DNA of 64,000 nt from an uncultured Acidobacteriota bacterium (GTDB lineage Bacteria > Acidobacteriota > Thermoanaerobaculia > Gp7-AA8). A program made the position numbers and the translations under genes. The notes beneath the pieces are model-generated. The model was not told where the DNA came from, did not search any database, and worked only from the letters and a program-made list of their open reading frames with translations. This document shows, one piece after another, positions 16,478-35,450 of the stretch (the stretch's first letter is position 1; each line of letters opens with the position of its first letter). Location: the NCBI GenBank assembly GCA_963822445.1, contig CAWGHO010000002.1, forward strand, positions 1,728,001 to 1,792,000, read 5' to 3'.

Positions 16478-16900
16478 ATGTCCAGCAATCCCGTGGTCCC
16501 GGTCTCGATCTTCAATGCGAACACGACTTCGGTGAACGTCACCGTCAACAACGGTACGCAGTTCACCGTCGACGGCGCGAAGGCGCCGACCTTCTCGCCC
16601 GCTTTCAACAACAGCGCCTGTAGCTTCGCCACGAATCCGTCGGGCAACACGTTCGGCGTCACGGGGACGAACTTCGTCGACATCACCCCCGTCGGGTCGA
16701 ACCAGCCGATCCAGTTCCAGATCAACATCTCCAGCAGCATCCAGGTCACTTCGCTGCAGCTCTACATGTTCTGGGCGAGCCAGACCACCGCCGGCTGGGT
16801 CCTGCTGAACAACGGGCAGATCATCGCCATGGACACGCTCTCCGGCGGCGGCTCGTCGAGCTCGCCGAGCTCGTCGCGGACCACCGCGAAGCGCTACTGA
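16478..16900 (+). CDS. Hypothetical 140-aa beta-rich protein (small subunit 1)
   Basis: ATG after strong AAGGAG; paralog of 33094-33474 (FNANT..VNV, ITPVG.NQP, SLQLY.FW, LLNNGQ..AM). Confidence 0.85.
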   Translation: MSSNPVVPVSIFNANTTSVNVTVNNGTQFTVDGAKAPTFSPAFNNSACSFATNPSGNTFGVTGTNFVDITPVGSNQPIQFQINISSSIQVTSLQLYMFWASQTTAGWVLLNNGQIIAMDTLSGGGSSSSPSSSRTTAKRY

Positions 16901-16927
16901 GCCGCACCGCCGCGCCCCGAGATCCTC

Positions 16928-19900
16928 ATGAACGGCGGGACACCTTTGCAGGAGATCGCACCCGGTCTGTATGTGATCGGTGTCTCGCCGTCGTCTCCCT
17001 CGTTCTCCTCGCCGCCGGCGACGACGTACGCGTACTACCTCACGCAGGCGGTGCCGTCGCCGGCGGACCCCGCACCCACGCTCGACGACACCTGGACGGA
17101 TGCGGATTACAGCGGCTGGTATCTCTTCCTGATCGACCCCATCGTCGATGCCACGAAGTTCGTTGACGAGGCCCGCTCGCAACTGCCGGCGCTCACCGCG
17201 TCGCCGTCGCAACTGCCGATCGGGATCATCTGGATGCCCGATCCGTCGGACTTCGGCGCCGCGCAGGGACTCGTTCTCTACTCGCCCGCGGGTCAGCCGG
17301 ACCTGCGGACGCTCGGGCCGGGAAGCCCGCCGCCGGTCGCGTTCACCTGGGGAGCGCTGACGCTCACGATCGGCGGCGCGCGTTTCTCGCTGGATACGGC
17401 GGCGAATGCGATCACGATCAGCAGTCCGTCGGGCTCGGCGATCTCGTTGTCGTTCTGTCCGCAGGGCGGCACCGTCCTTCCGTACTCCAACGTACCGGCG
17501 ACGCCGTGGCTCGTCTCGATTCCGCTCACCGGGGACGCCGCGGGCACGCTGGGAATGACGGCAGCGCTGGAGCTCGGCTATCTGGTCGAGACGTTCGGCT
17601 GCGGCTTCCGCTACATCACCGAGTCGAGCGATGACGCGGGGCTGTATTACACGTTCGTTCCTCCCGCTGCGCCGTCGCTCGACGGGACGTTTCTCGGTTT
17701 CGCGCTGCAGTTGCATCCGCTGTTGCCTTGCGACCCCGCGGCGACGCGCCTCGCGTTCGATCTCGCCGGTTCGCCGCCGAACGAATATCAGACGGCGAGC
17801 GCGAACGTCGTGGCGCCGTACTTCCTCACGACGAATGGTGGGTCGTTCAACCTCGTGCCATATGACGTCTCCGCGGACGCGACCCTCGCGCCGCCGGGCT
17901 TCGCATTCTGTCTCGCACCCGGTTCGTCGCCGTCGCCCCAGCTCTACCTCGCGCCGTCGGGCACGTTTCAGGTCTCGTCGTTCAGCTCACCGGGCGAAAC
18001 GGGTGCGCAGTGGCTCTGCGGACTCACGGCGCAGGAGTACCTTCAGATCGAGACGAACGATCTGGTTGCGTTCATCGCGGGCATGCCCGCGTACGCGCCG
18101 GGAGCGGGCAGCGGCCCCGCGGCCGGCCACGGTCCTACGCTCGACGCGACGTTCACCACGTCGTGGCTGCAGTTTCCCGTCGCCTCGTCGATCGGCTCGC
18201 GCTCGTACTTCGGCATGCCCAGCGCATCGATCTATTACGCCGGAATCGGCGACTCGTTCGGCACGCCCGTCGTGTCGAAGCTCGTCACGTTCGCGGACAG
18301 CGCCACCTTTCCGATCGTTCCGTACGGAGGCATCTACGCCAGCGTCGAAGCGGGCGGTGGAGTCCCGGTCTTCAACGCCGGCGTCAGTCCCGTTGCGTTC
18401 GCGAGCTTTGAGTCGCTCGTGCTGAGCAGCGAGAGGCACCTGCGAGCGACGGCCGGCACTCCCGGTCCCGTGTTCACGGTCTCTTCGGCGAACGGTCTGA
18501 CGTCGGCCGGCGAGATCGGCTCGCCGCCGCCGGCGGGCACCGCGCTCACGCCGCAGGGTTTCGTCGTCCAGTTGAATGCCGGCGGAACGTGGGCCCAGCT
18601 GGATCTGGCGTTGAGCCCGGAGACGGCCGGACAGTATCTGAGCTTCAACGGAACGCCCACCGTCGTCGAGCCCGCGATCGCGAACGTCGTTCTGCAGACG
18701 GAGCTCTTCCTCGTCGTCACGAATCCCGCGAGCGTTGGCAACTTCAGCAACGAGATCAGCGTCGGAGGATTCAACTTCACGCTCGGCATCCAGCCGTCGT
18801 CGCCGCATGCGGATGACGGCACGCTGCTGATCTTCAAGTTCAACACGACCGCATCGCTGGCACAGCTCGCGGAGCGCACGGATCTCTGGGCGGACACGGC
18901 GACCTTCGTAACGGACGTCGCCGCCGCACAGCAGCAGATCCGCGAGGCCATCGAAGTGGCGCGGAACTATCAACGCGGCGCGGGCGCCAGTCCTTCGTCG
19001 GGCAATCCGTTCGCGTACTTCCTTTCGATCCTCGACGTCCCGGGCTGGACCGGCATCCTCGCGCTGAACTGCGCGATCGACGGCAACGGGATGCCCGAGG
19101 ATTTCCAGATGCTCCTCGGGGGAATCCAGGGGCAGTTGCGCGCCCACCATCTCGGAGTCGAGCGCAATCGCGTGACCCAGGATCCCGATGGCGGCGCGAG
19201 CCTGCAGCAGAGCTCTCTGTTCGGCGTCATCCACTACGCCAGTCCATCGTCGGCAGCCTCGCCGGCGGAATCGCCGGCGCCGCTCGCCTACGGAGTGGAA
19301 ACGCTCACGGTCGTCTTCCAGAACTCGCAGATCACGCAGTTCAACGTCGTCGTCGGGCTGACGATCAACGAGCTGTTCGGACGCGAGACCGCGCTCGTCG
19401 TCACGTCGCTCTCGCCGCCTCCGCGGAACACGCTCGAGATCGCGGGGCAATACCAGGTCACCGGTTCCATCGGCGTCGTCACGTTCCAGACGGACCAGGC
19501 GTTCATCTACGACTTCCCCGTGCCGGCCGGCGCGGCGCGCGTGCTGGATCACGTCCTGTTCGACAGCGCATCGCTCGTTCCTGTTTCGTCGGTGCCGCTG
19601 TCGGGCGGCGGGACGCAGATGACGGCTCAGTTCTCACTGGCCGGCGGGATCTGGTTCAGCGCCCAGCCGTTCCCGGGCTCTGGAGACTTCGATCTTTTCT
19701 CATACGGCAACGGCGTCGCGGCGGACGGCGGACTGTCGTTCACGAACATGACCATGCAGATCGTCTTCACCCTCGACTCTGCGGGCGCGATGGTCCCCGG
19801 CAGCCAGACCGTGACGTTCGTGCCGTCGCTCCTCACGATCCTGCCGTCGCCGGGCGCCATCCGCTCCGGCAGCCTGCTCGGTGCGCTGCCATTGCAGCTC

Positions 19901-20506
19901 TCGCAATTCCTGGAGTCGCCGGCGGGGATGACGACATCCTCCCTCGGCGCAAACGTCGTGAACTGCCTGCAGCTCGAAGGACAGCCGTCGAGCAGCTCGC
20001 CGCCGCTGTCGCCTTCCGAGTCGTTGCCGGCATCGCCGCCGGCCGTGTCGCCCGCGACCTCGCCGTACGTCACCGTCGCGCCGACGTTCGCGCTCGAGTA
20101 CGACCTCCCGCTCGGTTCCCTCGGCTCGCTCTCCGGTCCGAACGCCGGCCTGATGGCGAAGCTCTTTCTCGGGTGGGGGCCGTCGACGGTCATGCCCGGC
20201 AGTGACGCGGCCGCGGTGTTCGTGCAACTGCCGCAGCTCTCCGCCGGTCTCGGCGGCGGCTTCAATCTCCAGGGAATCCTGAAGACCGTCTTCGGCGACG
20301 CGAACCTGCTCGCGGTCGACGTCGACGGACTGCCGGTGTACGCGCTGCTCTTCAACAACGTGCAGCTCAGCGTGCTCGGTTACGCCTTCCCTCCCGGCGT
20401 GATCGTCGATTTCCTCCTCTTCGCCGGGCAGGCCTCGCAGAACGTGAACACCAACACCAGCAACCTCGCCTGGTTTCTCGGCGTGCTGCCACAGGGGTCG
20501 CCGTAA
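16928..20506 (+). CDS. Giant hypothetical protein 1 (1192 aa; Ser-Pro-rich, Lys-poor, no signal peptide)
   Basis: Long ORF with host-like codon usage; stop overlaps the next start (TAATG). Confidence 0.9.
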   Translation: MNGGTPLQEIAPGLYVIGVSPSSPSFSSPPATTYAYYLTQAVPSPADPAPTLDDTWTDADYSGWYLFLIDPIVDATKFVDEARSQLPALTASPSQLPIGIIWMPDPSDFGAAQGLVLYSPAGQPDLRTLGPGSPPPVAFTWGALTLTIGGARFSLDTAANAITISSPSGSAISLSFCPQGGTVLPYSNVPATPWLVSIPLTGDAAGTLGMTAALELGYLVETFGCGFRYITESSDDAGLYYTFVPPAAPSLDGTFLGFALQLHPLLPCDPAATRLAFDLAGSPPNEYQTASANVVAPYFLTTNGGSFNLVPYDVSADATLAPPGFAFCLAPGSSPSPQLYLAPSGTFQVSSFSSPGETGAQWLCGLTAQEYLQIETNDLVAFIAGMPAYAPGAGSGPAAGHGPTLDATFTTSWLQFPVASSIGSRSYFGMPSASIYYAGIGDSFGTPVVSKLVTFADSATFPIVPYGGIYASVEAGGGVPVFNAGVSPVAFASFESLVLSSERHLRATAGTPGPVFTVSSANGLTSAGEIGSPPPAGTALTPQGFVVQLNAGGTWAQLDLALSPETAGQYLSFNGTPTVVEPAIANVVLQTELFLVVTNPASVGNFSNEISVGGFNFTLGIQPSSPHADDGTLLIFKFNTTASLAQLAERTDLWADTATFVTDVAAAQQQIREAIEVARNYQRGAGASPSSGNPFAYFLSILDVPGWTGILALNCAIDGNGMPEDFQMLLGGIQGQLRAHHLGVERNRVTQDPDGGASLQQSSLFGVIHYASPSSAASPAESPAPLAYGVETLTVVFQNSQITQFNVVVGLTINELFGRETALVVTSLSPPPRNTLEIAGQYQVTGSIGVVTFQTDQAFIYDFPVPAGAARVLDHVLFDSASLVPVSSVPLSGGGTQMTAQFSLAGGIWFSAQPFPGSGDFDLFSYGNGVAADGGLSFTNMTMQIVFTLDSAGAMVPGSQTVTFVPSLLTILPSPGAIRSGSLLGALPLQLSQFLESPAGMTTSSLGANVVNCLQLEGQPSSSSPPLSPSESLPASPPAVSPATSPYVTVAPTFALEYDLPLGSLGSLSGPNAGLMAKLFLGWGPSTVMPGSDAAAVFVQLPQLSAGLGGGFNLQGILKTVFGDANLLAVDVDGLPVYALLFNNVQLSVLGYAFPPGVIVDFLLFAGQASQNVNTNTSNLAWFLGVLPQGSP

Positions 20507-20844
20507 TGAGCTCTCCTCTCGATGTCAACGGCGTGATCGCGTGGCTGAACGGGACGTTCGGCCTGTCCATGCCGGTGCTGCCGTTTTCCGCGCCCTGGCT
20601 CGCGCCGTTCGCCGGCCTCTGGAATCTGCTCGTGCCGGGATCGCTGCCAAAGCCGGGCGATCCCTTCCCCTGGACGATCCCCGTGTCGGGCACGTGGACC
20701 GTGCCCGTCGGCGGCACGTTCGTGCTCGAGAACATCACCATCGTCGTCGCCGCCGGGCCGGCGACGAAGGGATTCCTCGCGCGCGTGAAGCGCGCCCTCA
20801 CCCGCCCGAAGACCAAACGAAAGCGAGCCAACCCGGCGCCGTGA
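20506..20844 (+). CDS. Hypothetical 112-aa protein, hydrophobic/Pro-rich with a basic C-terminal tail
   Basis: Translational coupling to the upstream gene; GC3-rich codons. Confidence 0.7.
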   Translation: MSSPLDVNGVIAWLNGTFGLSMPVLPFSAPWLAPFAGLWNLLVPGSLPKPGDPFPWTIPVSGTWTVPVGGTFVLENITIVVAAGPATKGFLARVKRALTRPKTKRKRANPAP

Positions 20845-20899
20845 ACGGCGTCTCGCACTGCTACGTCCACCGCCTTCATTTCACTCGCGAACAAGGAGA

Positions 20900-21358
20900 A
20901 TGATCATGCCCTCACCAACCCCTCCCGGCACCAGCGTTTCCGTCTCGGCGACCCTGCAGTTCTCGGGTCAGGACGTCGTCATCAGCAGCGGCGACATCTC
21001 CAATGCCTCCCAGGCGCTCTCGAACCTCGTTTTCTCGCTCACGGCACCGGTCACCCTCGGTTCGTTCGACAACTTCATCGATGCGCTGCACGCCGACCTC
21101 GGCGTGCCGCTCACGTCCTCCGAGATCACCAGCGCGATCGATGAGATCCCGAGCTCGCCGGCCGTGCTCGGTGCGATCAAGAACGACCTGCTGGCGATCG
21201 TGAGCACGCCGCTCATCCTCAACACGCTCAACGTCAACACTGCCGCCGGGGCGTATTCGGTCGGCGTTTCGTTCCCGGTGCACATCCCGATCACGAGCTT
21301 CCTCTCGTTCAACGGCATCGGCGTCCTCGTCTCCTACCAGTCGGCCAGTCCCGCATAG
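20900..21358 (+). CDS. Hypothetical 152-aa protein
   Basis: AAGGAG ribosome-binding site (start 20900 or 20906); ends SASPA; 7 nt before the next gene. Confidence 0.85.
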   Translation: MIMPSPTPPGTSVSVSATLQFSGQDVVISSGDISNASQALSNLVFSLTAPVTLGSFDNFIDALHADLGVPLTSSEITSAIDEIPSSPAVLGAIKNDLLAIVSTPLILNTLNVNTAAGAYSVGVSFPVHIPITSFLSFNGIGVLVSYQSASPA

Positions 21359-21365
21359 GCGAACG

Positions 21366-24300
21366 ATGAGCACCGACGTCATTCTGCAGCTCAGCGGCAC
21401 CCTCTTCGGCGTCGATCTCGACGCCGAAGTGGTGGTGGCGGGAGGTCCGCTCTCCTTCCGCCTGGCGCCCGCGCAGCCGATTCCGTTCGAGGAGATCTGG
21501 AACGCGATCGACACCGAGCTGCAGAACATCGCCGGCTTCAGCCTGCCGGACATCGCCGGCGGTCCGTGGGGCGGACTGTTCGGCGCGGGCGGTACGGTGA
21601 TGCCGACGCTGTGGATCGCGCCTTCCGGTCCGGGCCCTGCCGCGGGCACGTATCTCCAGCTCGATTTCTCGGAGCCGATCCAGATCGGCGGAACGTTCTC
21701 GACGCCCATCGGCACGATCACCATCGAGCCGAACTTCCAGGTCTGGAGTCTCTACTTCGGCTACGACCAGGCCACAGGGCCGGGCCTGGCCATTCGCGCG
21801 AAGATCTCGACGTCGAGCGCCGGCAGCGCCGCCACTTCCGACAAGGCGCAGATCGTCAGCTATCCGTTTCCCGTGCCGGTGCAGCCGTCCTCGAACGGGT
21901 TCCAGGTGAACTACCTCGGGCTCGGACAGCGCATCGGGCCCACCGTCAACGTCACCGGAGACGATCCGCTCGCCGCGATCTTCCAGCAGTTGGAGACGGA
22001 GCTCGTCGGCACCGATCCGCGGACGATCCTCACGACGCTCGCGAATGATTTCTACCAGCCGGATCGCGACTGGTTCATTGCCGCGGACATCTCCCTGCGT
22101 GGGTTCCGCGTGCGGATCCTCTTCAACGATCCGGTGCTTTACGGGCTGGAGATCACGGTCAGCTCGTCTCCGCCAACGTTCTTTTCCGGCCTGCTCTTCG
22201 AGATCCTCTACCAGAAGCTCGGCCCGAATCTCGGCGTTTACTACGGTGCGCTCACGCTGCCGATGGCTATGCGCCGCATCGTGCTCGACGGCGTGATCCT
22301 GATCCTTCCGGGCTTCTCGATCTGGGTCTACACCAACGGCGACTTCCGCGTGAACGTCGGCTGGCCCGTCGGCACGAGCTCGATCGGCGTGCAGGTCGGT
22401 CCGCTCATCGGCTGGGGCGGTTTCTATTTCGCGAAGCTGAGCAGCGGAGACAATCCGGGCGCGCAGCCGAGCGTCGATTACAACCCCATCCTCGCGTTCG
22501 GTCTCGGCGTAACGCTGTCGCTCAACGAGAGCTTCAACGCCAGCATCTTCAGCGCGACGATCTCCGTCTCGCTCTCGGCCACGTTCCAGGGATTGCTCGC
22601 GTGGGAGGCTGGCAACTCGATCTCCGGTCCACCCGATCACTACTGGTTTGCCGGCACCGCGGGGTTGTCGGTGCTCATCCAGGGAACGGTCGACTTCGCG
22701 ATCATCAAGGCATCGGTCACGATCAGTTTCACAGCGAACCTCGGCGTCGCCTTCGAGACCGGTTACCAGACCCTCGTCGCGGTCTCGGCGTCGGTCTCCG
22801 TCTCCGTCTCCATTCACGTCATCTTCTTCACGATTCACCTCTCGTTCAGCACGACCGTGAGCACGCAGTGGGTGATCGGCAGCGGCACCGGCATCGCGTC
22901 GGTCAACGGTCCGCAGGCGCCCGGCCTCGCCATCACTGGCGGCTTCGGGGCGCCCGATCCCGTGCACGTGGAAGCGCTCCGCTCGGCGCGGCTACTCATG
23001 GATCGCATGGCGGCAACGCCGCGGCGCGCCGCGAGCCCCACGGATCCAGTCACGCGGCTCGATGAAGCGAGCCGCATCGCCGCGGTGTCGCCCATCTCGA
23101 TCCCGGTGCAGTTCGTTCTCCAGCCGACAGTCGTCTACGACAGTCCTCCTTCGTTCAACGTCATCGCGTCGTTGCTGCTCGAGTCTCCCGGGCCCGGCTC
23201 ATCGCCACCGGCGTCGCCGGCGATGGGAACGCCGTTCGAGAGATTGATCGTGGCGATGGTGGACTGGCTTCTGGCCATGTTTCCGACGGGCACGCTCAGC
23301 GAGCGTTTCGCACAGGTCGTGTCGGCCCTCGGGTCAGGCAATGAAGCGCCGTTCGACGGAGACTGGACCGCGTTTCAGTCGAGTCTTCAGACGTTCCTGC
23401 AGAGTGCCCTCACGTTCGACGTTACCGCCGCGGGAAGCGACTCGCCGTCCGGCGGCATCGACAGCGTGGCCGTCTTTCCGATGCTGTACGGCCTCCAGCT
23501 CGCGTACGTCGACGAGAACGGTGACCCGCAGACGATCGACTTCGACACCTTCAATCCGACTCCCGCGGATTACCCCACCGCGGTGAGCCTGTACTTCGCC
23601 GACTCGCAGTGGAGCGGCAGTCCGGCCGGCAACGGCGGATTCACTTCCCCGTCGCTGAGCATGGCCACGTTCACGCTCGCCGACTACTTCCTCATGCAGG
23701 CGCGCAATGCCGCGAACGCGCTGTACACCGCGGCCACGGCGTACGAGCAGAACGCGACGAACGTTTTCCTCGCGCAAGTCGATGCATTGCGCGCCGGCGG
23801 TGGCTCGCAATGGGACCTCGTCGACGCCACCACCGAGCACGCGGCGGACCTCGTCGGCGGGAACGAGCTCGAAACGCTGCTTCAGCAATTCGACTACGCG
23901 TCCGCCGCGGGGATGGGCTCGCGATTCCTTCTCAACGGACTGCAACTGCCGGTGCCGGCCGACGTGCCGCCCGATCCGACGTTCGAGAACATGAAGAGCG
24001 TTCCGACGGCGGGCCTGTACATCCTCACCGGGCAGCAGTACGCAATCGCGCAGGGCGCGACCACGGCAACCGGGACGTTGAGTCTCGATCCCTCCGCCCC
24101 TTCCGGCTGGATCACGTTCGACGGCGGTTCCACCGGCGCCGTTTCGACGATCGAGCTTCCGTCGTCGATTCCGCCGTCGCCGCTGCCGCAGTGGCAGACG
24201 GGGACACAGAGCCCGTCCGCCGGCACTGCCGTATTCAACGCGCTGCCCGCGGTCACGTCGCATCCGCTGTACGTCTCGCTGAAGAACCAGATCGCGTGGG

Positions 24301-27300
24301 ACGCGAGCGGCATGGCGCAGACGATTCTCGCGCTCCCTGCGCAAGTGAAGCAGCTCCTCGCCGGCGGCGTGCAGCTCCAGATCACCGCCGATCCGCCGGC
24401 GAGCACGAGCTCCGGGTCGCCGGTGGCCGCGCCGCCGCTCATTGCCGCGACTCCGGCGCTGCTCATCCGCATCACGCTGACGCAGGTGCCGTCGAACAGC
24501 ACGAACAGCGTGGCGCCCGGCTCGCCGACGGGATCGTCGCCGCAAGCGGAGCCGCAGCAGTATCTGCCGAACATCTACCAGGTCACCGGGGCCGACGAAG
24601 AGACGCGCGACCGGATCTTCGCGGCGCTGCAATCGGGTCTTTCGGGCGCGTCAATCTCGCTGCTCTATCCCACGTCGGGCAACTCGCCCGGGCCGTCGGG
24701 ACTCGTCTCCGAGGGACTGGGCATCGACGTGATGCTCGTCAAGACGAATCTCTCGACGCTGAACCAGGTCGGCGACGTCGTCATGGCTTTCCGCAAGTCC
24801 GCGGCGACGATGAACGACGACGCATCCTCAGCCACGGTCACCGAGGTGGTCGGGTTCCTCGAGTTGCTCTGGCAGGTGAGCGTTGTCAACGCGCCCGGAT
24901 TCTTCCTCTTCTATGAGAACGACCAGGGCCAGGACCTGCCGTCCTCGCTCTTCTCTTCGGCGGGTACGCAAGGTGGCGGGACGGCGCAGTTCGACGTGCT
25001 CGTGCAGTTCGCGGCGGTGCCCGCGGAGACGGTCAGCGTGCCGCAGTACGCGAGCTGCATCTTCATCGAGGCGCAGAGCGGAAGCGATCCGCTGTACGCC
25101 GGCGTGCTCGATGCGGATGGAGCGCCGCTGCCGCAATGGTTCCCCACGATGCCGCCGGGCAACGTCGGCTTCACCGTGGAATGGGAGCCGCCGGTGACCA
25201 GTCCGAACGATCTCGTGCCGGTGGGTGAGCTCTATCACCTCCTGCAGTACCAGGTGCAGGGAAGCGGCGGCTACATGGAGTCGGTGTGGAGCCTGCCGGT
25301 CGGCCCGATGCAGAACAACGGCGTATTCGCGTCGGCGTCGTCGCCGGAGCTCTGGCAGTACCTCACCAACGTACCGGTGTATCTCGCTTACGGCACGTCG
25401 CCGGCCGAGGCGCCGAGTCCATATGCGATCGTGGGAACGACGGTCGGCGTCGATCTGCGCATCGCCGATGTCTATGGCGATGTGTTGCCGTCGACGTACG
25501 ACGCCACCTTTGCTCCGCTTTATCAGGATGCGCTGATCTCCATCGCGCAGTGGCCCGGCCTGTACGTGCAGTACCGCTTTGTCGCGTCGAGCGGCAACGG
25601 GCAGGCGGTGCTCGAGATCACCGCGACGTTCGATCCCGATTCGGTCGTGCCGCCGGCGGCGTCACCAGCCTCGCCGCAGGGCTCGTTCAACGTGCAGCAG
25701 CAGTGGCAGACCGCGCTGTCGCGTTACGACCTGATCCTGTATCAGCTCGCGGATCCGAATGTCACCGTGTCCGTTGCCACGAGCGTGGCGGGCGGCCCGG
25801 TCGGCGATCCCACTGCGATCGCATCGTCGCTGTACGAGTTTGCTGTCGCCATCGAAGAAGAGATCGCGGTGGCGATGTCGTCGCCGGACGCGGCCTCACA
25901 GGTGACGCGCGTGATCTCGATCGACGTCCCGTTCGCAGCCGTCGTCGCGCAGACCGTCGACATCTTCCAGGTCGGCGTGACGATGACGTTCGCGCGCCAC
26001 GCGGCACTCGTCGATCCGATCGCCGCGGCGAACCTGCCGGGAGCGGTCAGCGTCGCGTACGACGTCCCGGCCGATCTCACTGGTGACGCGGCGTCGCCGA
26101 ACGTCACCCTTTTCGCCCAGGACTTCGAGGCGGCCTTCGCGGGCTTCGACGGTGCCTCCGGCGAGCTCAAGCTCGCGCAACGCTCCGGCGTCTCCACCGG
26201 CTCCTCGGCACCGGTCAGCGAATCGCTCTGGGCGGTGCGCTTCAGCGCCACCGACGGCATTGCACTGTCGATGCAGCCGGGCCTCGCGTACTTCGCGCTG
26301 CAGCCGCTGTCGACCGAGCCGCTCAGCGGTGTGGCCGCGGGCCAGACCTGGTCGAACGTAGACATCGATGCATGGGCACAGCAGTTCCTCGCCGCATACG
26401 ACGCGTTTCTCTCGCCGCAGATGGCGGTGGCGATCGCCGTGCTCGACGCGCAGGACGAAACGAGTGCCTATGAGTCGCTCACCACGACGAAGCAGCAGCT
26501 CGCGAACACGGTTCCCCTCGGCCTGACGCAGATCCTCGCGGCGCAGGCAGGGCTCGGCGATCTGACCGCCGCGCAGACGCGGCTGACGAACGCGATGCTC
26601 ACGCAGCTCGGCAGCGCATTCTCTGTCAGCACGATCGTGCAGGTGCCGGCGACGGTGAGTGTGGCGGCGATGGCCGAGAGTCCCGATCAGACTTCGCAGC
26701 CACCGCAGGTCTACGGCGCTCTCGTTCCGGTCACGGCTGCCAATTCGTCGACGGCATCGACCTACTCGTTCTCTCCGGGAGAAGTCGTGCTCGCGCCGGG
26801 ATCGCAGTGGATGACGTCCCTGCTCACCGTCGCGCAGCCCGGCGAACAGTCGTCGCTTTCGATCGGACTGGCGTATCAGATCAGCTATCTCCAGCACGAC
26901 TTCCTCGGCAACGAAGCGGAGCTCGGCTACACACCCTCGTCGTGGCTCAAGTTCGTCGTGCCCGCCGTGCCGTTGCTCCAGCTTCCGATCACAGCAGCGG
27001 CGGACATCCCGATTCCGCTGATCTTCGAGCCGTCCGCGCCTTCGCTCGTGGTGCAGAGCGCGACCGAGGCTCCTCCGGGATCGCCGGTCAGCCCGAACGA
27101 CATCCAGGGCGAGATCGGGCAGATGCTGCAGTGGAACTACGCCGTCGACATGGCCCTCGCGCTCGAGGCGCAGGACGAGCTCCATTTCGACGTCACGTAC
27201 AACGTTCCCGCCGCACCGAGCGTGCTGACGGCGATGACCGCAACCTCGACCGCGCCGCTGGCGGGCCTGTTCAACGCACTGGCCGAGTTCAGGCAGTGGT

Positions 27301-28295: not shown

Positions 28296-31252
28296 GCGAG
28301 GGCGGCCTTCCCGTCACACTGGCCGGCTTCCGCAATTTCCACGAGGGGAAGTCGATCGTCGTGTGCGGGTGCGGGTCATCGCTGTCGGCATTCACGCGGC
28401 CCGAGCGCTTCGTCACGATCGGCGTGAACGACGTCGGCCGTCTCTTTCAGCCCGATTACCTGGTCGTGCTCAATCCGCGGCAGCAGTTCACCGGCGATCG
28501 CTTCCGCCACGTCGAGGAAAGCCGGGCCAAAGCGATCTTCACGCAGCTCGATCTCCGGCTCCGTCACCCGCACGTCGTCCGCTTTCGCCTCGGAAAGCGC
28601 GGAGGCACGGAGCCCGTCGATCCCAACGTGCTGCACTACACGCGCAACTCGCCGTACGTCGCGCTTTGCCTGGCGATGCACATGGGAGCGAAGCGGATCG
28701 GTCTGATCGGCGTCGATTTCACCGACCATCACTTTTTCGGGCGGACCGGACGTCATTCACTGGCGCGCGAGCTGCCGCAGATCGACTCCGAATACCGGCG
28801 CCTCGGCGAGGTCGCCAGGCGGCTCGGCATCGAGGTCTTCAACCTCAGCGAATCGAGCCGGATCACGGCCTTTCCGAAGATCTCCGCCGATGCCTTCGCG
28901 CGACTCGACGCGCCGCCGTTGCGCATCGTCTCTTACGCAACGACACCCGTCGCCGGCGTTCCGCCCGTGCTCGCGAGGTGCATCGCCGAGCGGACGCCGC
29001 ATGAGGGCCGTGCCGTATGGGCCCGCGCGGGCTACGGCAACGGCGTCGTGTTCGACGGCGACGTCGAGTACACCCGCTCCTCGCGCCAGGCGAACGCGCT
29101 GCTCGACGCCGCGGACGTCGTGATCGTGCACAACGGCAAGGTCGATGCGCGTCACGTCGCGCTGATCGACAGCAAGCCGGTCGTCACGCTCGCGCACAAC
29201 TACAAGTGGAACGTGGACGAGACGTTCGTCCAGCGCGGAATGCCCGGGCTGGTCGTCGCGCAGTACCAGGCGACGCTCCCGGAGTTCGCATTGTGGACGC
29301 CGGTGCCGAATCCGATTCCGTTCTGGGAACCGGCCTACGCGGCGGGCGAGAAGGGTCCGCGGATCACCATCGCCTTCACGCCGTCCGGAAAACACGAGCG
29401 CTATCCGGAAGACCATCACCTGTACTGGCACGCGAAGGGATATCGCTCGACGATGGCCGTTCTCGAGCGGCTCGCCGCGCGGCGCGGCATCGCCCTCGAG
29501 GTCATTCGAAACGCGCAGATCTCGCACGCGCGCTCGATGGAGATGAAGCGCCGCGCGCACATCGTGATCGACGAGTGCGTGACCGGCAGCTATCACCGCA
29601 ACAGTCTCGAGGGACTGGCCGCCGGCGCCGTCGTCGTGAACGGCGTGGGACGCCTGGCCGGCGTGGCCGAATTGCTCCGTGACGTGAGCGGATCCGAAGA
29701 AGTGCCGTTCGTCGCCGCGGGTCTCGACGACCTGGAGGCTGTTCTCGAGAAGCTGATAGCGCGCGGCGCCGCCGCGCTTGCCGAGGAAGGTGCTCGCGGC
29801 CGGCGATGGCTCGAAGCGCATTGGGATTTCGGGCGGCAGTGGAGCCGCTTCTGGCAGCCCGCGATCGAGACTGCGCTGCAGCAGCGCGGTGTGGTGCAGG
29901 CCTCCGGCCTGCCTTCCGGCGGTGAGAAAGAGGCAGGCTGGAAGCCCGCACCACACGGACACGGGATCGTCATTCCATTCGGCGGGCGCGACCGGCTGCC
30001 GCTGCTCGAGCGCACGCTCCTCGCGGTCGCCGCGAGCGGCGCCAGCGAAGTGATCGTCGTCGAAATGGCGGAAGACGAGCCCTGCGCGCGCGACGCGGTC
30101 GCCGCCGCCGGTTTCCAGCACGTCTTCATCCGCGACGTCTTTCATAAGACGCGTGCCATGAACGCCGGCGCGGCGCGCATCACCAGCGAACGTTTCTTCT
30201 GGCTCGACGCCGACATCGTCGCGACTCCGCCGTTCTTCGCGAATGCCGTCGCCGAAATGGACGAGCGGAAACTCGATTGCCTCGTGCCCTGGACCACGGT
30301 CGGTTACCTGACCGGCGAGGACACGGCAGCCGTTCTGGCCGAATCGAAGTCCGTCGACGAATGCAAACCGCAGACGACGTACCGCTCTCCGCGCGCGAGC
30401 CGCGGCGGCGTCGTCCTGGTGCGCACGTCGTTCGTGCGCGAGTACGGCGGGATGTGCGAAGAGTTCCGGGGATGGGGAGCGGAAGACGATGCGTGGTTTG
30501 CGAAAGCGAGATGCCTCGGCACCGCCGACGTCACCCGCCGCCGCGACCAGCACGTGTACCACCTTCATCACGAGAACAGCGGCGGCGCCCGTCCCGGCGC
30601 GGCGCTCGCTCTGAATCCGCATTACCGGCGCAACGTCGCGTTGTTTCGTGAGGTGCGATCGCTTCGCACGCGCGAGCGTTTCCTGCAACGGTTTCCCGCC
30701 GTGCCCCTTCGCGCCGAGGGAGATCCGCCCTGGGGCGGCGAGGCGGCTCGGCCCGCGGAACCTCGCGCGACGGCCGTGCTTCCGGCCGGCCGCCAGGGGC
30801 CGCGGCTGAACCTTGGCTGTTGCGACGATGTGCGCCGTGGGTTCGTGAACGTCGACCGCGTCGCCGGCAGGGGAGTCGATGCCGTCGTCGACCTCGCGGA
30901 ACCGTGGCCCTGGAACAGCGATTCGGTCGACGAGATCCGCGCCTGGGACATCATCGAGCACCTCCCCGACAAGGTGCGCACCATGAACGAAATGTGGCGC
31001 GTGCTACGGCCCGGCGCGACGGCCGAGATCGCCGTCCCCACCACCGACGGCCCGGGCGCGTTTCAGGATCCGACGCACGTCTCGTTCTGGAACCGGCGCA
31101 GCTTTCTCTACTACGAGCACGGCAATCCGTATCGCGAGCGGTTCGCGCGCAGCTACGGCATCGAGGCGCGGTTTCGCGTGCGCTCCGAGCGGACCGAGAG
31201 CTCTGTCGATGGCCCGCGGCTGCACATCGTGCTGGAGGCGGTGAAGCCATGA
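28292..31252 (+). CDS. Four-domain fusion: Maf/DUF115-like + GT-B-like + GT2/GT7C + class I SAM methyltransferase (986 aa)
   Basis: ATG 28292 after GGAGG; VVCGCGSSL..TIGVND..PDY..MGAKRIGLIGVDF; IVIDE...SLEGLAAGAVVV; IVIPF..WLDADI..GGMCEEFRGWGAEDD; LNLGC..NVD..IIEHL..EMWRVLRPG. Confidence 0.85.
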   Translation: MSEGGLPVTLAGFRNFHEGKSIVVCGCGSSLSAFTRPERFVTIGVNDVGRLFQPDYLVVLNPRQQFTGDRFRHVEESRAKAIFTQLDLRLRHPHVVRFRLGKRGGTEPVDPNVLHYTRNSPYVALCLAMHMGAKRIGLIGVDFTDHHFFGRTGRHSLARELPQIDSEYRRLGEVARRLGIEVFNLSESSRITAFPKISADAFARLDAPPLRIVSYATTPVAGVPPVLARCIAERTPHEGRAVWARAGYGNGVVFDGDVEYTRSSRQANALLDAADVVIVHNGKVDARHVALIDSKPVVTLAHNYKWNVDETFVQRGMPGLVVAQYQATLPEFALWTPVPNPIPFWEPAYAAGEKGPRITIAFTPSGKHERYPEDHHLYWHAKGYRSTMAVLERLAARRGIALEVIRNAQISHARSMEMKRRAHIVIDECVTGSYHRNSLEGLAAGAVVVNGVGRLAGVAELLRDVSGSEEVPFVAAGLDDLEAVLEKLIARGAAALAEEGARGRRWLEAHWDFGRQWSRFWQPAIETALQQRGVVQASGLPSGGEKEAGWKPAPHGHGIVIPFGGRDRLPLLERTLLAVAASGASEVIVVEMAEDEPCARDAVAAAGFQHVFIRDVFHKTRAMNAGAARITSERFFWLDADIVATPPFFANAVAEMDERKLDCLVPWTTVGYLTGEDTAAVLAESKSVDECKPQTTYRSPRASRGGVVLVRTSFVREYGGMCEEFRGWGAEDDAWFAKARCLGTADVTRRRDQHVYHLHHENSGGARPGAALALNPHYRRNVALFREVRSLRTRERFLQRFPAVPLRAEGDPPWGGEAARPAEPRATAVLPAGRQGPRLNLGCCDDVRRGFVNVDRVAGRGVDAVVDLAEPWPWNSDSVDEIRAWDIIEHLPDKVRTMNEMWRVLRPGATAEIAVPTTDGPGAFQDPTHVSFWNRRSFLYYEHGNPYRERFARSYGIEARFRVRSERTESSVDGPRLHIVLEAVKP
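29889..29956. repeat. Palindromic element inserted in-frame in the glycosyltransferase gene (family 2)
   Basis: gtgtggtgcaggcctccggcctgcc...ggcaggctggaagcccgcaccacac; homologous to the intergenic element at 49049-49115. Confidence 0.8.
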
Positions 31253-32649
31253 CCGTGCGCTCCTTCGCCGTCGTGATTCCTTCGGCGAACGCCGCAAAGC
31301 TGATCGAGTGCGTGCGGGCGATCCGGCGGCACGAGCCGTCCCTCGATCCGTCCCGCATCATCGTCGTCGACGACGGCGCGCGGGCAGGCGCCGGGTCCGA
31401 GCTGCCGGATGTACGCTGGGTCGAAGGGGTGCGGCCGTTCGTCTTCGCGACCAACGCCAACCTCGGAATCGCAGCCGCGGGCGGTGACGATGTCGTTCTG
31501 CTCAACGACGACGCGCGTCTGGTCACGTCCGGAGGGTTTACCGCCCTCGCCGCGCATGTCGATCGCCAGCCGTCCCTCGGCCTCGTGGCCGCCGCCGTCC
31601 GCGGTGCGGTGGGCAATCGCGCGCAGCGGCCGCGCGCCTCCGGCGGACTGAGAGCCGAGCGCTCGAAACTCTGCTTCGTTTGCGTGTACATCCCGCGCTC
31701 CGTGTACGGCGCCGTCGGCCCGCTCGACGAGCGCTTCGTCGGCTACGGCTACGAGGACGACGACTATTCGCTCCGCGTAAGAGAGCGCGGCTTCGAGCTC
31801 GGCATCGCCGATGACTGCGTCGTCGAACATGATGGAGGCGCCACCTTCCGCACGTGCCTCGATTACGTCGAGCTCGAGCAGCTCAATCGCCGGCTGTATC
31901 TCGAGAAACAGGATCGTCTTCGCGGAGCCGAACGCTTCGTCCTGGCCATGCGCGTGAAGAACGGCGTGCCCTTTGTCGGCGAGGCCATCGAGCGGGCGAT
32001 GTCGCTCTGCGATCGCGCCCTCATCTTCGACGATCATTCCGATGACGGCACGGCCGCAATCTGCCGCGCACTCGGACCGCGCGTCACCGTCGTCGAGTCG
32101 CCGTTCGAAGGTCTCGACGAGGCCCGCGACAAGAACGAAATGCTTCGTCTTCTCCGGTGGGAGCTGCCGGACTGGGTGCTCTGGATCGACGCCGATGAGG
32201 TACTGGAGCGCAGCGGCCCTCAGCTCCTGCGCGAGGCCACGCGCCGCGATCCGTTTGCGGCCGCCTTCGCGCTGCGCGTCGCGTACGTCTGGGACGATCC
32301 GGAGCAGGTCCGTGTCGACGGCATCTTCGGGCGCTTCCATCGCGAGTCGCTGTTCCGCATGCGCGGGCAGTCCGTGGAACGCCTTCAGTTTCGGGAGCGC
32401 GGTTCGGGGCCGAACCTCCATTGCGGCAACGTGCCGATGAATCTCGCCGGCCATCGCCGCCGTCTGGGCGTGCGTCTCAGGCACTACGGCTACATGACCG
32501 CCGAGCAGCGGCAGAGGAAGTACGACTGGTACGTGCACGTCGATCCCGACAACGCTGCGGAAGATCACTATCGGCACATTGCCGGAGAGCGCGGGGCGCG
32601 CTACGCACCCGGGCCGCCGCGATTCGTGCGATGGACGGAAGGACGGTGA
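31249..32649 (+). CDS. Tandem two-domain GT2 glycosyltransferase (466 aa)
   Basis: ATG 31249 (ATGA overlap); VVIPS..IIVVDDG..LLNDD..LDERFVGYGYEDDD; second domain FDDHSDDGT..WVLWIDADE..HYGY. Confidence 0.88.
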   Translation: MTVRSFAVVIPSANAAKLIECVRAIRRHEPSLDPSRIIVVDDGARAGAGSELPDVRWVEGVRPFVFATNANLGIAAAGGDDVVLLNDDARLVTSGGFTALAAHVDRQPSLGLVAAAVRGAVGNRAQRPRASGGLRAERSKLCFVCVYIPRSVYGAVGPLDERFVGYGYEDDDYSLRVRERGFELGIADDCVVEHDGGATFRTCLDYVELEQLNRRLYLEKQDRLRGAERFVLAMRVKNGVPFVGEAIERAMSLCDRALIFDDHSDDGTAAICRALGPRVTVVESPFEGLDEARDKNEMLRLLRWELPDWVLWIDADEVLERSGPQLLREATRRDPFAAAFALRVAYVWDDPEQVRVDGIFGRFHRESLFRMRGQSVERLQFRERGSGPNLHCGNVPMNLAGHRRRLGVRLRHYGYMTAEQRQRKYDWYVHVDPDNAAEDHYRHIAGERGARYAPGPPRFVRWTEGR

Positions 32650-32653
32650 GCAG

Positions 32654-33073
32654 GTGACCGCCAACCCCATTCAACTGAATCACACCCTCACGATTCTGCA
32701 TCCGCTGGTCCCGGCGGCGACCGAAGCCTTCGAGCCGGCGGTCGAGGGCGTGGCCTCGCCCCCTCCCCTGACGAGCGCGGTGCTTTTCAACGCCACCACC
32801 GAGGCCGTCAACTCCATCAGCGTCGGCGCGGTCGTGTCTCCGCCGGCCGGCCTGCCCGGCTTCAGCTCCAGCCAGGCCCCGTCTTCGTGCACCTGCAGAC
32901 TTTCGCAGGGCGAAACCTCGCTTCAGGTCACGTTCGCGAACGGTGTGGCCTGGTCGTCGACGCTCCTCGTCGGCTCGTACGGCGGCACGGTTTCCATCTG
33001 GTGCTTCGAGAACGGATTCGTGCTCACCACCGCCTCCAATCAGCTCGCGCAGATCAGCTTCTGGTCGGAATGA
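32654..33073 (+). CDS. Hypothetical 139-aa beta-rich protein (possible distant small-subunit paralog)
   Basis: GTG 4 nt after the upstream stop; LFNATTEAVN resembles FNANT..VN; ASPPP and VSPP motifs. Confidence 0.7.
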   Translation: MTANPIQLNHTLTILHPLVPAATEAFEPAVEGVASPPPLTSAVLFNATTEAVNSISVGAVVSPPAGLPGFSSSQAPSSCTCRLSQGETSLQVTFANGVAWSSTLLVGSYGGTVSIWCFENGFVLTTASNQLAQISFWSE

Positions 33074-33093
33074 AGAAGAAAGGAACGGGGACG

Positions 33094-33474
33094 ATGACAG
33101 TCGCGGTGTCGGTCTTCAACGCCAACACGGATCAGGTGAACGTGAACATCAACAACTCCTCCTCGGGCTTCAGCATCAACGGCACCACGGCGGCGCTCTC
33201 GTTCTACCCGATGACGCCCACCGCCTCTGACGCGCCCACGTTCGGAAGCCGGCCCGGGCCGAACGTGCTGGGGCCCGGGTCGAACTCACTTGCGATCACG
33301 CCCGTGGGAGTCAATCAGCCCGGACTCTTCACGCTTCAGATCCCGACCACGCAGCAGATCATCTCGCTGCAGCTTTACGTCTTCTGGGACTCGGCGACGA
33401 CGATCGGCTACGCGCTGCTCAACAACGGCCAGGTGCTGGCGATGGAAAACCAGCCGTACGGGAGCCCGTCATGA
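33094..33474 (+). CDS. Hypothetical 126-aa beta-rich protein (small subunit 2)
   Basis: Clear paralog of 16478-16900; alternative coupled start at 33070; ends YGSPS. Confidence 0.85.
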   Translation: MTVAVSVFNANTDQVNVNINNSSSGFSINGTTAALSFYPMTPTASDAPTFGSRPGPNVLGPGSNSLAITPVGVNQPGLFTLQIPTTQQIISLQLYVFWDSATTIGYALLNNGQVLAMENQPYGSPS

Positions 33475-34844
33475 AACGGGCCGCACTGTCCGCTCTGCTG
33501 ATGCTGATCGCGGCGCATGGCCATGCGCAGACGTGCAATCCGGCTCAGGACGACTGTACCGTCGCGCAGGCGCTCGACCATTACCGCGCGCAACCGCTCG
33601 CGGCGGCGATCGAAAGCGGCGTGCACGCCGCCAACCTTCCGGCGTCGCCATCCGCCGGCGGCATTCACAACACCTATCAGGATTTCCTCAGCCTCTTCGG
33701 CTTCGCCATCGAAAGCGTGACCGAGGAGGACAACGGGCAGGTCATGGTCGTGCGTTTCAATCCACTCCGCGCGGGACGCACGCTCCTCGGCGCGACCCTC
33801 ACGATCATCGAGCCTGCCGTCGGGCAGGTCGTGCAGCGGGCCATCCCCGAGGACGTACGCGCGGCGACGGTGTCCGGCCTGGACCAGAGCCTCGGCGAGA
33901 CGGATGACGTTACGTACTCGCTTTCGTGGTCGCCTGCATCACCCGACTGTCCCGCCGCCGAGCGAAGCGCATGTTGGGGACGTTCGCCGGCCGCCTATCG
34001 CGAGCTGATCGCAACCGTCGCCGCCGCGCACGTGCAGGAGCTCGAGCCGGCGCTCGCGGCGGCGGCCTCCGACCTGTTGCGGTACTTCCCCGGCTCCGCG
34101 GGCTCGCTCTTCGATCAGCCACTCTCTCGCGCCACCGATCGCGAGGCCTTGCTCGCCGGCCTGCGCGATCTCGCCGCGAGTGAACGAACGACGGCGCCTG
34201 TCGCGGCGACAGCGTTGCCGCGCCTCATCGACCAGCAGCCGCAGTTCGCGCTCACGACCAGCTACCGCATGCCCGGCCGCCTCGGCGGCCCTCGTCATTT
34301 CGAAGCCGCGTTCGAATTCCATTCCGGGCTGCGGAACGTCAACGGGTTGCGCCGGCGATGCCACGCCGTCGCCCGGGACAAACGCGCGGCCTGTCTCAAT
34401 GCCGCCATCACCGCGTTCGCGACGAAGGACGCCGTCGTCCACGATTTCGTCGTCCGCGCCACTGCGCGGCGCACGCTTGCCTATCGCGTCGACGACCTCT
34501 GGCTCGATCAGCCGGTCGAGGGCTTCACGCCCATCGATCTCGGGCCGGCGACATCCTTCCGCATCCGCGCGCAGGCCGGGCGGCAGTTCGCGACGCCGCT
34601 GACGGAGCAGCACATCCGCGCGGACTGGTCGCTCGAAGGGACGTTCAATGGCAGCGATGCCACGCGTCCTGCGAATCGATGGGTCTCGACGCTCACCCTC
34701 GCCGTCCCGGCCGGCGCCAGCATGACCATTCCGGTCTCGCTCACGTATGCGAGCGAGGCCGAGCTGCTCGGCGCGCAGACCGATCGCATCGGCGCGCACC
34801 TCGGCCTCACCTGGCGTCTGCCGCGTGCTCTCTCGGGGCAATGA
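33471..34844 (+). CDS. Secreted hypothetical protein with C-terminal amphipathic beta-strands (possible outer-membrane protein)
   Basis: Signal peptide MKRAALSALLMLIAAHGHA; three Cys pairs; ends IGAHLGLTWRLP. Confidence 0.75.
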   Translation: MKRAALSALLMLIAAHGHAQTCNPAQDDCTVAQALDHYRAQPLAAAIESGVHAANLPASPSAGGIHNTYQDFLSLFGFAIESVTEEDNGQVMVVRFNPLRAGRTLLGATLTIIEPAVGQVVQRAIPEDVRAATVSGLDQSLGETDDVTYSLSWSPASPDCPAAERSACWGRSPAAYRELIATVAAAHVQELEPALAAAASDLLRYFPGSAGSLFDQPLSRATDREALLAGLRDLAASERTTAPVAATALPRLIDQQPQFALTTSYRMPGRLGGPRHFEAAFEFHSGLRNVNGLRRRCHAVARDKRAACLNAAITAFATKDAVVHDFVVRATARRTLAYRVDDLWLDQPVEGFTPIDLGPATSFRIRAQAGRQFATPLTEQHIRADWSLEGTFNGSDATRPANRWVSTLTLAVPAGASMTIPVSLTYASEAELLGAQTDRIGAHLGLTWRLPRALSGQ

Positions 34845-35447: not shown

Positions 35448-35450
35448 GGA

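Follow-up and report, generated by a model that had tools for sequence, protein, structure and literature searches.

The window analysed here is the whole 64,000-nucleotide stretch from contig CAWGHO010000002.1 of an uncultured Acidobacteriota bacterium; at 16478-34844 it holds ten forward-strand genes, A to J, with intergenic gaps of -4 to 55 bases, which form one tightly packed operon. Two very large proteins of this operon, B and E, are enriched in the dipeptide Ser-Pro (SP), and the two genes directly behind E, F and G, encode predicted glycosyltransferases (GTs). Based on a comparison of homologous loci, in which the SP excess accompanies a neighbouring GT gene, we propose, at a probability of roughly 60%, that [G/A]-S-P is an acceptor motif for cytoplasmic O-glycosylation by F and G.

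Under this proposal, one branch of a family of loci built on B, C, D and E, a presumed multi-protein assembly, would have acquired a soluble multidomain GT gene right after E. In the window this would be F (Maf/sialyltransferase-like, GT2 and methyltransferase domains) followed by G (two GT2 domains). Only in this GT branch is SP conserved, preferably as [Gly/Ala]-Ser-Pro in a context rich in Pro, Ser, Ala and Gly. F and G would O-glycosylate SP serines in exposed loops of E and B, and in the tails of B and D, while these proteins are still in the cytoplasm and the assembly has yet to form or to be exported. The proline at +1 would fix an extended loop conformation to be read by a priming transferase, and the further transferase and methyltransferase domains would build a short, methylated glycan. 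We infer the attachment of a sugar at all, the priming domain, the identity of the glycan and the final location of the assembly. The features on which the argument turns are as follows.

16928..20506, forward strand: B, 1192-residue beta-rich protein with 29 SP, candidate glycosylation substrate
20498..20503, forward strand: C-terminal Ser-Pro of B (residues 1191-1192)
20900..21358, forward strand: D, 152-residue core protein ending in ...QSASPA
21344..21349, forward strand: C-terminal Ser-Pro of D (residues 149-150)
21366..28295, forward strand: E, 2309-residue giant protein with 33 SP, main candidate substrate
21897..22892, forward strand: signature N-terminal domain of E (N-domain, residues ~178-509)
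23214..27377, forward strand: eleven conserved Ser-Pro sites of E (residues 617, 949, 1053, 1058, 1279, 1345, 1433, 1577, 1906, 1909 and 2003)
28292..31252, forward strand: F, 986-residue multidomain transferase, predicted soluble
28292..28936, forward strand: N-domain of F, Maf/sialyltransferase-like
between the N-domain and the GT2 domain, forward strand: middle part of F, without family
~29966-30661, forward strand: GT2 / Glyco_transf_7C domain of F (Pfam)
~30797-31141, forward strand: methyltransferase domain of F (Pfam)
31249..32649, forward strand: G, 466-residue protein with two GT2 domains, predicted soluble

Ser-Pro excess beside a glycosyltransferase gene

Counts on the translated sequences gave 29 SP in B and 33 in E, precisely the approximate hand counts of the first-pass annotation of this DNA, where 11.6 and 18.4 were expected from composition (observed/expected 2.5 and 1.8, respectively). 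Whole-protein shuffles reached the observed number in 0 of 2000 trials for either protein. When residues were shuffled within 10-residue blocks only, SP stayed in excess in both B (29 versus 17.9, p = 0.0015) and E (33 versus 22.5, p = 0.0095), and PS did not (p = 0.52 and 0.19). PS was mildly raised under the whole-protein shuffle (18 in B, 26 in E; p ~0.04), a signal that was gone under the local one, and TP lay at or below expectation (6 versus 8.4 in B, 8 versus 15.1 in E). The annotation had called for SP to be compared with PS and TP against composition; with local composition controlled, SP is enriched and the other two are not. Across the 6.0-Mb genome the background ratio for SP was 1.03 (3192 open reading frames (ORFs) filtered by GC content at third codon positions), and among 2549 ORFs of at least 200 amino acids B ranked 2nd and E 16th by SP z-score. 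Codon pairs at the SP sites are varied, the commonest, TCG-CCG, matching overall codon usage; a DNA repeat was rejected as the source of the excess because so many different pairs are used. A composition artefact was likewise rejected, on the local shuffles, the PS and TP controls and the overlapping GC ranges given below.

The SP tracts quoted in the annotation are present, as are the three C-termini QGSP, SASPA and YGSPS, and the two transferases have as few SP as it said, both at expectation (F, 2 versus 2.8; G, 1 versus 0.8). Its statement that every non-enzymatic protein of the operon carries the motif fails, because A (2 observed, 1.3 expected), C (1, 0.9), D (3, 2.0), H (2, 1.5) and I (1, 1.1) are not enriched (shuffle p 0.30-0.73) and J is marginal (4 versus 1.7, p = 0.07). 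Among the small proteins a site is supported only at the C-terminus of D. The C-terminal SP seen in I lacks conservation among orthologues of A and I.

For comparison between loci, 50 from species genomes and 29 from metagenomes were used. Close homologues of E repeat the SP excess (typically 26-42 versus 14-20 expected) with PS near expectation, and a more distant set does not. In 23 loci, designated GT+, a multidomain GT gene lies beside the core; in 22 it follows E directly and encodes ~900-1300 amino acids, and on an Azospirillum plasmid it lies divergently upstream. Observed/expected SP in E was 1.39-2.72 in the 23 GT+ loci (median 1.87) and 0.19-1.32 in 22 loci without such a gene (GT-; median 0.78), two ranges that do not overlap (Mann-Whitney p = 1e-8, uncorrected for phylogeny). 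For B the corresponding values were 1.50-2.53 in 20 GT+ loci and 0.17-1.56 in 20 GT- loci (p = 1e-7, also uncorrected for phylogeny). PS and TP did not differ between the two sets, and the GC contents of the E genes overlapped (0.53-0.74 in GT+, 0.38-0.75 in GT-).

Three architectures were found for the GT+ gene: an F-like N-domain with a middle part of no known family and GT2, with or without a methyltransferase domain; an F-like N-domain with Glyco_trans_1_2 and GT2; and, in L012 and L022, a double-GT2 protein of ~890 amino acids that starts at the end of E and has no F-like N-domain. A Pfam GT domain was found in 14 of the 15 GT+ loci scanned (in L011 weakly, E ~5e-4). In L037 Pfam gave a methyltransferase only, and the GT+ call is by 46% identity to F over residues 6-799; eight loci (L004, L006, L008, L053-L056 and L067) were called by tblastn alone. 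GT- calls were made by Pfam on ORFs of at least 180 amino acids, up to 10 kb to each side and at E<=1e-5, in 23 SP-poor loci, and no GT family was found in the flanks of 22 of them. Because the ORF lists omitted frames running off the ends of the loci, a six-frame tblastn with seven GT queries was also run against 31 SP-poor loci; it gave matches in L080 and L049 alone. The annotation had asked whether homologous loci lacking these transferases also lack the SP tracts: loci without transferases show neither the SP excess nor the conserved SP sites described next.

When all 20 X-Pro dipeptides were compared, SP alone separated SP-rich from SP-poor homologues (1.87 versus 0.84 in E, 2.0 versus 0.85 in B), and TP was ~1.0 in both. 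Of 1829 SP sites in SP-rich E homologues, 27% have Gly at -1, a 3.3-fold enrichment, and 20% have Ala, in surroundings rich in Pro, Ser, Ala and Gly. Thirteen alignment columns of E hold SP in 31-51 of 56 SP-rich homologues and in 1-2 of 17 SP-poor ones, and E of the window retains 11 of these 13. Replacement of Ser by Thr was rare at these columns (12 of 139 non-Ser cells). SP sites of B are less fixed in position, with 3 columns reaching 50%. Its tail follows the same division: of 20 GT+ sequences, the window included, 11 have SP among their final 8 residues, versus 0 of 20 GT-. D has SP among its final 6 residues in the window and in 13 of 19 GT+ loci (tails such as ...GSPSSP, ...TSP and ...ASPA), and in none of 8 GT- rows, which represent 5 distinct sequences. 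Orthologues of A/I, C and H follow no C-terminal SP rule.

For the E N-domain, 48 rows entered a maximum-likelihood tree; L003, L047 and L052 were left out for an incomplete or interrupted segment. All GT+ loci fall into one clade, with an approximate likelihood-ratio support (SH-aLRT) of 99. Two GT- lineages are nested within it: Puniceibacterium with Loktanella, whose sister group consists of Azospirillum plus an uncultured alphaproteobacterium (99), and Microbulbifer, whose sisters are Erwinia/Brenneria/Raoultella (99). Neither shows an SP excess (0.67, 0.68 and 1.09), and by this tree the two appear to have lost the GT gene and the SP excess together. Microbulbifer retains 4 of the 13 SP columns, as compared with 11 in its enterobacterial GT+ sisters, and Puniceibacterium retains none, as compared with 9 in a GT+ relative. 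All 3 independent GT+/GT- pairs point in the same direction; in this contrast test L020, L030 and L033 were called GT- by tblastn alone. On a tree of 73 E homologues the SP-rich/poor label needs 7 changes, and the further lineages there that are poor in SP but placed inside the SP-rich clade (P0053/P0056, P0058, P0060 and P0039) are defined by SP content only.

Transferases F and G, setting of the sites and competing explanations

Conservation within the locus is highest in the N-domain of F, at 52-75% identity between 21 loci. Against PF01973 (MptE-like) it scored 18.1-18.5 bits, below the cut-off of 34.6 and over profile positions 146-167 only, and weak matches to the same profile were found in 20 of 22 orthologues of the domain (best E 4e-4). 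Against the alpha-2,3-sialyltransferase family phrog_4603 it gave E = 3.4e-8. Together these similarities suggest that the domain is remotely akin to Maf/PF01973. The 'Maf-type' label of the first-pass annotation is accordingly weak: the likeness stays below the family cut-off, and L012 and L022 are SP-rich without a Maf-like domain. Because these two loci keep SP in its absence, a GT2 domain is no less plausible as the priming domain, and the Maf-like domain need not be the reader of S-P. In F, PF00535 matched residues 559-670 (26.8 bits, cut-off 23.3) and Glyco_transf_7C scored 29.6 (cut-off 23); in G, PF00535 matched in two stretches at 59.9 bits. Orthologues of G were found in L024 and L026, and both proteins match phage GT families in PHROG. 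Among 1.84 billion proteins the family of the F N-domain has 2950 representatives at E<=1e-3 and 256 at E<=1e-30, the latter mostly N-terminal in proteins of 500-1900 amino acids with some stand-alone forms of ~200 amino acids; being this large, it is not exclusive to the B-C-D-E system.

No 19-residue window of F or G reaches a Kyte-Doolittle value of 1.6, and lacking a hydrophobic segment both are predicted to be soluble. The start of F overlaps the stop of E by 4 bases, and G overlaps F by 4 bases, from which F and G appear to be translationally coupled to E.

S-P is also the minimal motif of proline-directed kinases, and phosphorylation of these serines was the alternative named in the annotation. 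That motif, and the specificity for Ser, would suit a kinase. Pfam and NCBIfam searches found no kinase or phosphatase domain in the operon, a scan of genes that follow E in 13 GT+ loci gave none either, and the one Pkinase match that was seen lies in an SP-poor locus, L034. Since nothing kinase-like tracks the motif, this alternative gains no support; it would also leave the link between motif and transferase unexplained, and we regard it as highly improbable.

For the structural setting of the sites, AlphaFold2 models were used. B, modelled from a 51-sequence alignment, is mostly beta (predicted local distance difference test score (pLDDT) 83.4, predicted template modelling score (pTM) 0.75); residues 1-1150 of E gave pLDDT 78.6 and pTM 0.47. 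In the B model 28 of 29 SP serines lie in coil, often directly after a strand and several in low-confidence loops, and in the E model all 16 do, including the conserved sites that were modelled. For the two models together this amounts to 44 of 45 SP serines, compared with 103 of 193 other serines. Along the alignment, SP sites of window E sit in indel-rich, poorly conserved stretches (flank conservation 0.41 versus 0.52 overall), 29 of the 33 below median conservation.

The same models bear on whether SP simply marks helix N-caps, with Ser as N-cap and Pro at N1. Some SP in the E alignment consensus do stand before helix-like sequence, and 5 of the 45 mapped sites precede a helix. Because there are only these 5, the reading fails, and it was rejected for the other 40. 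Positions +2 to +5 are moreover enriched in Gly and Pro, which break helices, the equally good caps Thr, Asp and Asn do not substitute for Ser, and the link to the transferases would again go unexplained. We give this idea next to no credence.

A more serious competitor is that SP is a structural feature of loops or linkers, serine loops stiffened by proline, which arose once in the ancestor of the GT clade, that two GT-less sublineages remodelled their loops for unrelated reasons, and that the transferases act on a lipid, a small molecule or a polysaccharide. The single GT+ clade, which makes the main association one event, speaks for it, as do the independent contrasts, of which there are only three (sign test p = 0.25), the placement of the sites in variable, indel-rich loops of fast turnover, and L080 and L049, in which a transferase stands next to E without SP. 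A structural role, however, should allow Thr, Asp or Asn in front of Pro, and PS as well, yet only SP differs and Thr is rare. In both nested lineages that lost the GT gene, 9-13 of the 13 sites are gone as well, the C-terminal SP tails of B and D, where little structural role is expected, obey the same rule, and F and G are by prediction soluble and coupled to E. On balance we consider the structural explanation unlikely.

It could also be that SP loops are docking or recognition elements that recruit the transferase or bind a glycan, the modified residue lying elsewhere in B, D or E. This predicts the same co-occurrence and conservation, and the computed data do not distinguish the modified atom. 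Strict Ser, Gly/Ala at -1 and placement in exposed coil and tails nevertheless have the look of acceptor sites, and ~30 copies per protein are hard to picture for docking, which makes this possibility quite improbable in our view.

Several points weigh against SP as acceptor signal for F and G. The case as a whole is comparative. Because all GT+ loci form one clade, the main association amounts to one evolutionary event and two losses, and with only three phylogenetically independent contrasts significance is out of reach (sign test p = 0.25). GT- status covers flanks of up to 10 kb only, and a transferase could lie elsewhere in those genomes. L080 and L049 encode E-like proteins of ~3000 amino acids followed by an unrelated GT2+GT1 gene, and show no SP excess (7 versus 17.0 and 4 versus 14.8 expected); either the enzyme has another acceptor there, or E need not be the substrate of a transferase encoded right behind it. 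The genes concerned are the following.

L080:17672-19702: GT2+GT1 fusion gene, right after E
L049:15112-17076: GT2+GT1 fusion gene, right after E

Nor does one transferase domain occur in all SP-rich loci, most having the Maf-like N-domain and L012 and L022 only GT2, so a shared priming enzyme is not evident. A, C, H and I, four of the small proteins, are without a motif signal, and a Pfam scan found no genes for sugar-nucleotide synthesis in the operon. For synthesis of a CMP-nonulosonic acid donor, a NeuB-type synthase profile (PF03102) gave two partial matches in the genome, of 41.9 and 32.6 bits (cut-off 22.1), and the profile also matched in 9 of 14 control genomes.

With these points set against the evidence above, the suggestion of the first-pass annotation that S-P is the acceptor signal keeps its core, namely the enrichment of SP over PS and its absence from GT-less loci; its extension to every protein and the Maf label are the weak parts.

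The B-C-D-E family and the remaining genes

Among 5.8 billion clustered proteins, E had 144 homologues at E<=1e-3, all of them unnamed or annotated 'hypothetical' or 'LysM'. A word-index search for B returned four homologues only. By tblastn on the fetched loci, B, usually C, and D were found just upstream of E in most, and B-C-D-E is accordingly taken, from sequence comparison, as a conserved core, patchily distributed and present in at least nine phyla. The family was found in Acidobacteriota, Gemmatimonadota, Actinomycetota, Bacteroidota, Chlorobiota, Calditrichota, Verrucomicrobiota and Planctomycetota, and among Pseudomonadota in Erwinia, Brenneria, Raoultella, Microbulbifer, Xanthomonas hortorum, Azospirillum, Mangrovicella and Puniceibacterium. 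Homology between B and E themselves was rejected (hhalign probability 0.1).

The N-domain is the most conserved part of E, and is also found in LysM-repeat proteins of 3000-4000 amino acids. It had zero matches in 50,697 phage records and 8 in plasmid records, where the proteins are annotated as hypothetical, LysM or immunoglobulin-like domain proteins. One of the plasmids, pBRH02 of Mycetohabitans rhizoxinica (L084, 389-15968), carries a four-gene cluster of 252, 1178, 1114 and 2614 amino acids, annotated hypothetical; its last gene encodes a LysM protein with the E N-domain, and the layout resembles that from B to E. In the ESM Atlas the E N-domain scored 0.92 with unnamed clusters and 0.86 with DUF6603, the latter a lead only, and the best score for A was 0.81. 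A full-text literature search, with subscription journals and supplementary files outside its scope, returned no paper on DUF6603, and among the listed papers on giant LysM proteins none concerned this family, as judged by title and abstract. Searches with PDB sequence profiles for B, E residues 1-1150 and the F N-domain gave a best E of 0.28.

Foldseek with the whole-protein B model returned generic large beta proteins only (TM <=0.14, probability <=0.54), and VIA-align with its residues 723-976 small barrels at Z <=5.9; as B was folded as a whole protein, these searches do not imply that its fold is new. Residues ~178-509 of E were modelled as long antiparallel strands, six of ~20 residues plus shorter ones. 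VIA-align listed 70 chains at Z>=8 for this domain, the best being 5dl5_A (Z 13.0, root-mean-square deviation (rmsd) 7.0, 229 residues aligned), and the 50 chains listed are all porins, Omp85-type or TonB-dependent barrels, at rmsd values of 5-10 Å and with the proviso that Z below ~13 can mean only a common arrangement in repetitive folds. The first hydrophobic window is at residue 579 in B and at residue 305 in E, and D lacks any. Read in translation, the N-termini of these three proteins did not resemble signal peptides, and no N-terminal signal peptide for outer-membrane export was found in E. Relatives of E also occur in Actinomycetota and Bacillota, which are single-membrane phyla. Because of the high rmsd, the lack of an N-terminal hydrophobic segment and these single-membrane relatives, the E N-domain is described only as a predicted porin-like beta domain, and no location is assigned to it.

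Genes around E in several other loci were noted. Within ~1.3 kb downstream of E, GT-less loci carry other protein-modifying enzymes: tyrosinase with a von Willebrand factor type A (VWA) gene in L027 (16936-19656), a hemerythrin-domain protein and then a multicopper oxidase in L035 (17030-19494), peptidase S10 on the opposite strand in L023 (18065-19729) and L058 (14195-15727), and two trypsin-like peptidases behind an unnamed gene in L034 (18076-19684). The slot downstream of E may be an exchangeable 'maturation enzyme' position. In the Gemmatimonadota locus L012 (18198-24294), genes for tubulin-tyrosine-ligase-like, RimK-type ATP-grasp and protein-arginine deiminase proteins lie past the double-GT2 gene, and in L080 a gene for a collagen-repeat/Kelch protein lies just upstream of B.

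It is tempting to go further and see in B-C-D-E a previously undescribed, horizontally spread giant-protein assembly with a porin-like signature barrel, whose surface chemistry would be set by the exchangeable enzyme after E, the GT branch reading a strict [G/A]-S-P and other branches using tyrosinase, multicopper oxidase or peptidases. We offer this wider picture tentatively, and hold it to be doubtful in its full extent.

The other genes of the operon are these.

16478..16900, forward strand: A, 140-residue small protein, paralogue of I
20506..20844, forward strand: C, 112 residues, basic C-terminal tail, member of the conserved core
32654..33073, forward strand: H, 139-residue small protein without family
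33070..33474, forward strand: I, 126-134 residues, paralogue of A, ending in YGSPS
33471..34844, forward strand: J, 457 residues, last gene of the tight cluster

A and I share 47% identity, and A/I orthologues lie upstream of B in many loci. Orthologues of B lie upstream of E in most loci, those of C between B and D, and those of D just upstream of E. C, the start of which overlaps the stop of B, looks hydrophobic on inspection and ends in a strongly basic tail, here KRALTRPKTKRKRANPAP; Arg/Lys-rich tails also end several of its orthologues. H has weak orthologues in a few loci. J overlaps I by 4 bases, has an N-terminus that looks like a signal peptide on inspection, and was seen in the window only; tblastn against the 79 other loci gave no match. 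Proteins A-E and H-J matched no Pfam, NCBIfam or PHROG family.

Upstream of the operon lie genes for L21, L27, Obg, NadD, a sigma-54 activator, DksA, a major facilitator superfamily (MFS) transporter and an M43 peptidase, and downstream one for an extracytoplasmic function (ECF) sigma factor. The latter and the unnamed gene next to it (window 34950-36381) have conserved counterparts at the equivalent place in the most closely related locus (L026:22008-23409), with 48% and 47% identity, respectively; in L029 an ECF-type sigma factor gene lies upstream. Sigma-54 activator genes stand near three loci (window 8615-9565, L014:604-2481 and L068:411-2672). A scan of the window with the sigma-54 promoter consensus gave 18 matches where 18.4 were expected, and zero upstream of A; a scan for sigma-70 promoters and terminators gave nothing above chance. 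A survey of sequencing runs listed no RNA run, and only small DNA shares, in soil metagenomes.

Comparison with known glycosylation systems

Three systems come closest in function: Maf-type flagellin, serine-rich-repeat adhesin and phage virion glycosylation. The Maf flagellin O-glycosyltransferases (PF01973, MptE-like), as described in abstracts on them and in PMC11339370, are soluble and cytoplasmic, are encoded beside their substrate, and O-glycosylate Ser/Thr in exposed loops of a structural subunit before its assembly or export. The same is proposed for F and G, and the F N-domain is weakly similar. The substrates here, however, are not flagellins, and Pfam and NCBIfam gave no flagellin match for any of the ten proteins of the operon. 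The F N-domain matches below the Pfam threshold and is fused to GT2 and methyltransferase domains, and two SP-rich loci have no Maf-like domain. Maf enzymes are moreover without a known acceptor sequon according to PMC11339370, in contrast to the strict, conserved Ser-Pro found here.

Other systems share some traits with the one proposed. In the serine-rich-repeat adhesin system of Gram-positive cocci, GtfA/GtfB and accessory transferases O-glycosylate many serines of one very large co-encoded substrate in the cytoplasm before export. That system uses GT4-type enzymes on a long Ser-X repeat, whereas the sites here are isolated Ser-Pro in loops of a folded, beta-rich protein; it also brings its own SecA2/SecY2 export genes, which the Pfam scan did not find in this operon. 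Glycosylation of phage virions (capsid and tail-tube subunits of mycobacteriophages) likewise places GT genes beside structural genes, and the C-terminal tails of virion subunits are known to be glycosylated. Family searches including PHROG found no phage genes in the window, and, as noted above, the E N-domain is unmatched in phage records. Two phage glycosyltransferases have been linked to capsid glycosylation in the abstract of PMC11256854.

PglL/PglO and PglS modify serines in low-complexity stretches rich in Ala, Pro and Ser, a context like that of the SP sites, and the PglL sequon WPAAASAP, as given in PMC11339370, resembles it. Those enzymes, however, are membrane proteins that transfer glycan en bloc from a lipid carrier to secreted proteins in the periplasm, unlike the predicted soluble transferases here, and no oligosaccharyltransferase family was found in the Pfam scan, which covered the operon proteins only. 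Plant Ser-Hyp/Ser-Pro glycomodules and S/T-P kinase motifs use the same dipeptide as a modification signal. Both belong to eukaryotic secretory-pathway or kinase systems, and the likeness does not go beyond the motif; Pfam and NCBIfam found neither a prolyl hydroxylase nor a kinase in the operon. To our knowledge, none of the Maf, serine-rich-repeat adhesin and phage virion systems uses a Ser-Pro sequon, and the full-text literature search, within the scope given above, found no paper on a bacterial Ser-Pro O-glycosylation sequon.

Dedicated cytoplasmic O-glycosylation of proteins is a known kind of system, and what would be new here is its carrier, an uncharacterized family of giant proteins. 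As long as cytoplasmic O-glycosyltransferases such as Maf lack a known sequon, there are limits to predicting which proteins they modify and to employing them in glyco-engineering. If the wider picture sketched above holds, [G/A]-S-P would be the first sequon to be defined for O-glycosylation of proteins in the bacterial cytoplasm, and would mark ~30 loop sites in each giant protein as well as the C-termini of two subunits. Being short and specific for Ser, the motif would be directly testable with one small substrate (D, 152 amino acids) and one or two enzymes. It would give a first experimental handle on a family of 1200- and 2300-residue proteins that occurs in at least nine phyla and for which searches of Pfam, NCBIfam, PHROG and the PDB returned no relative.

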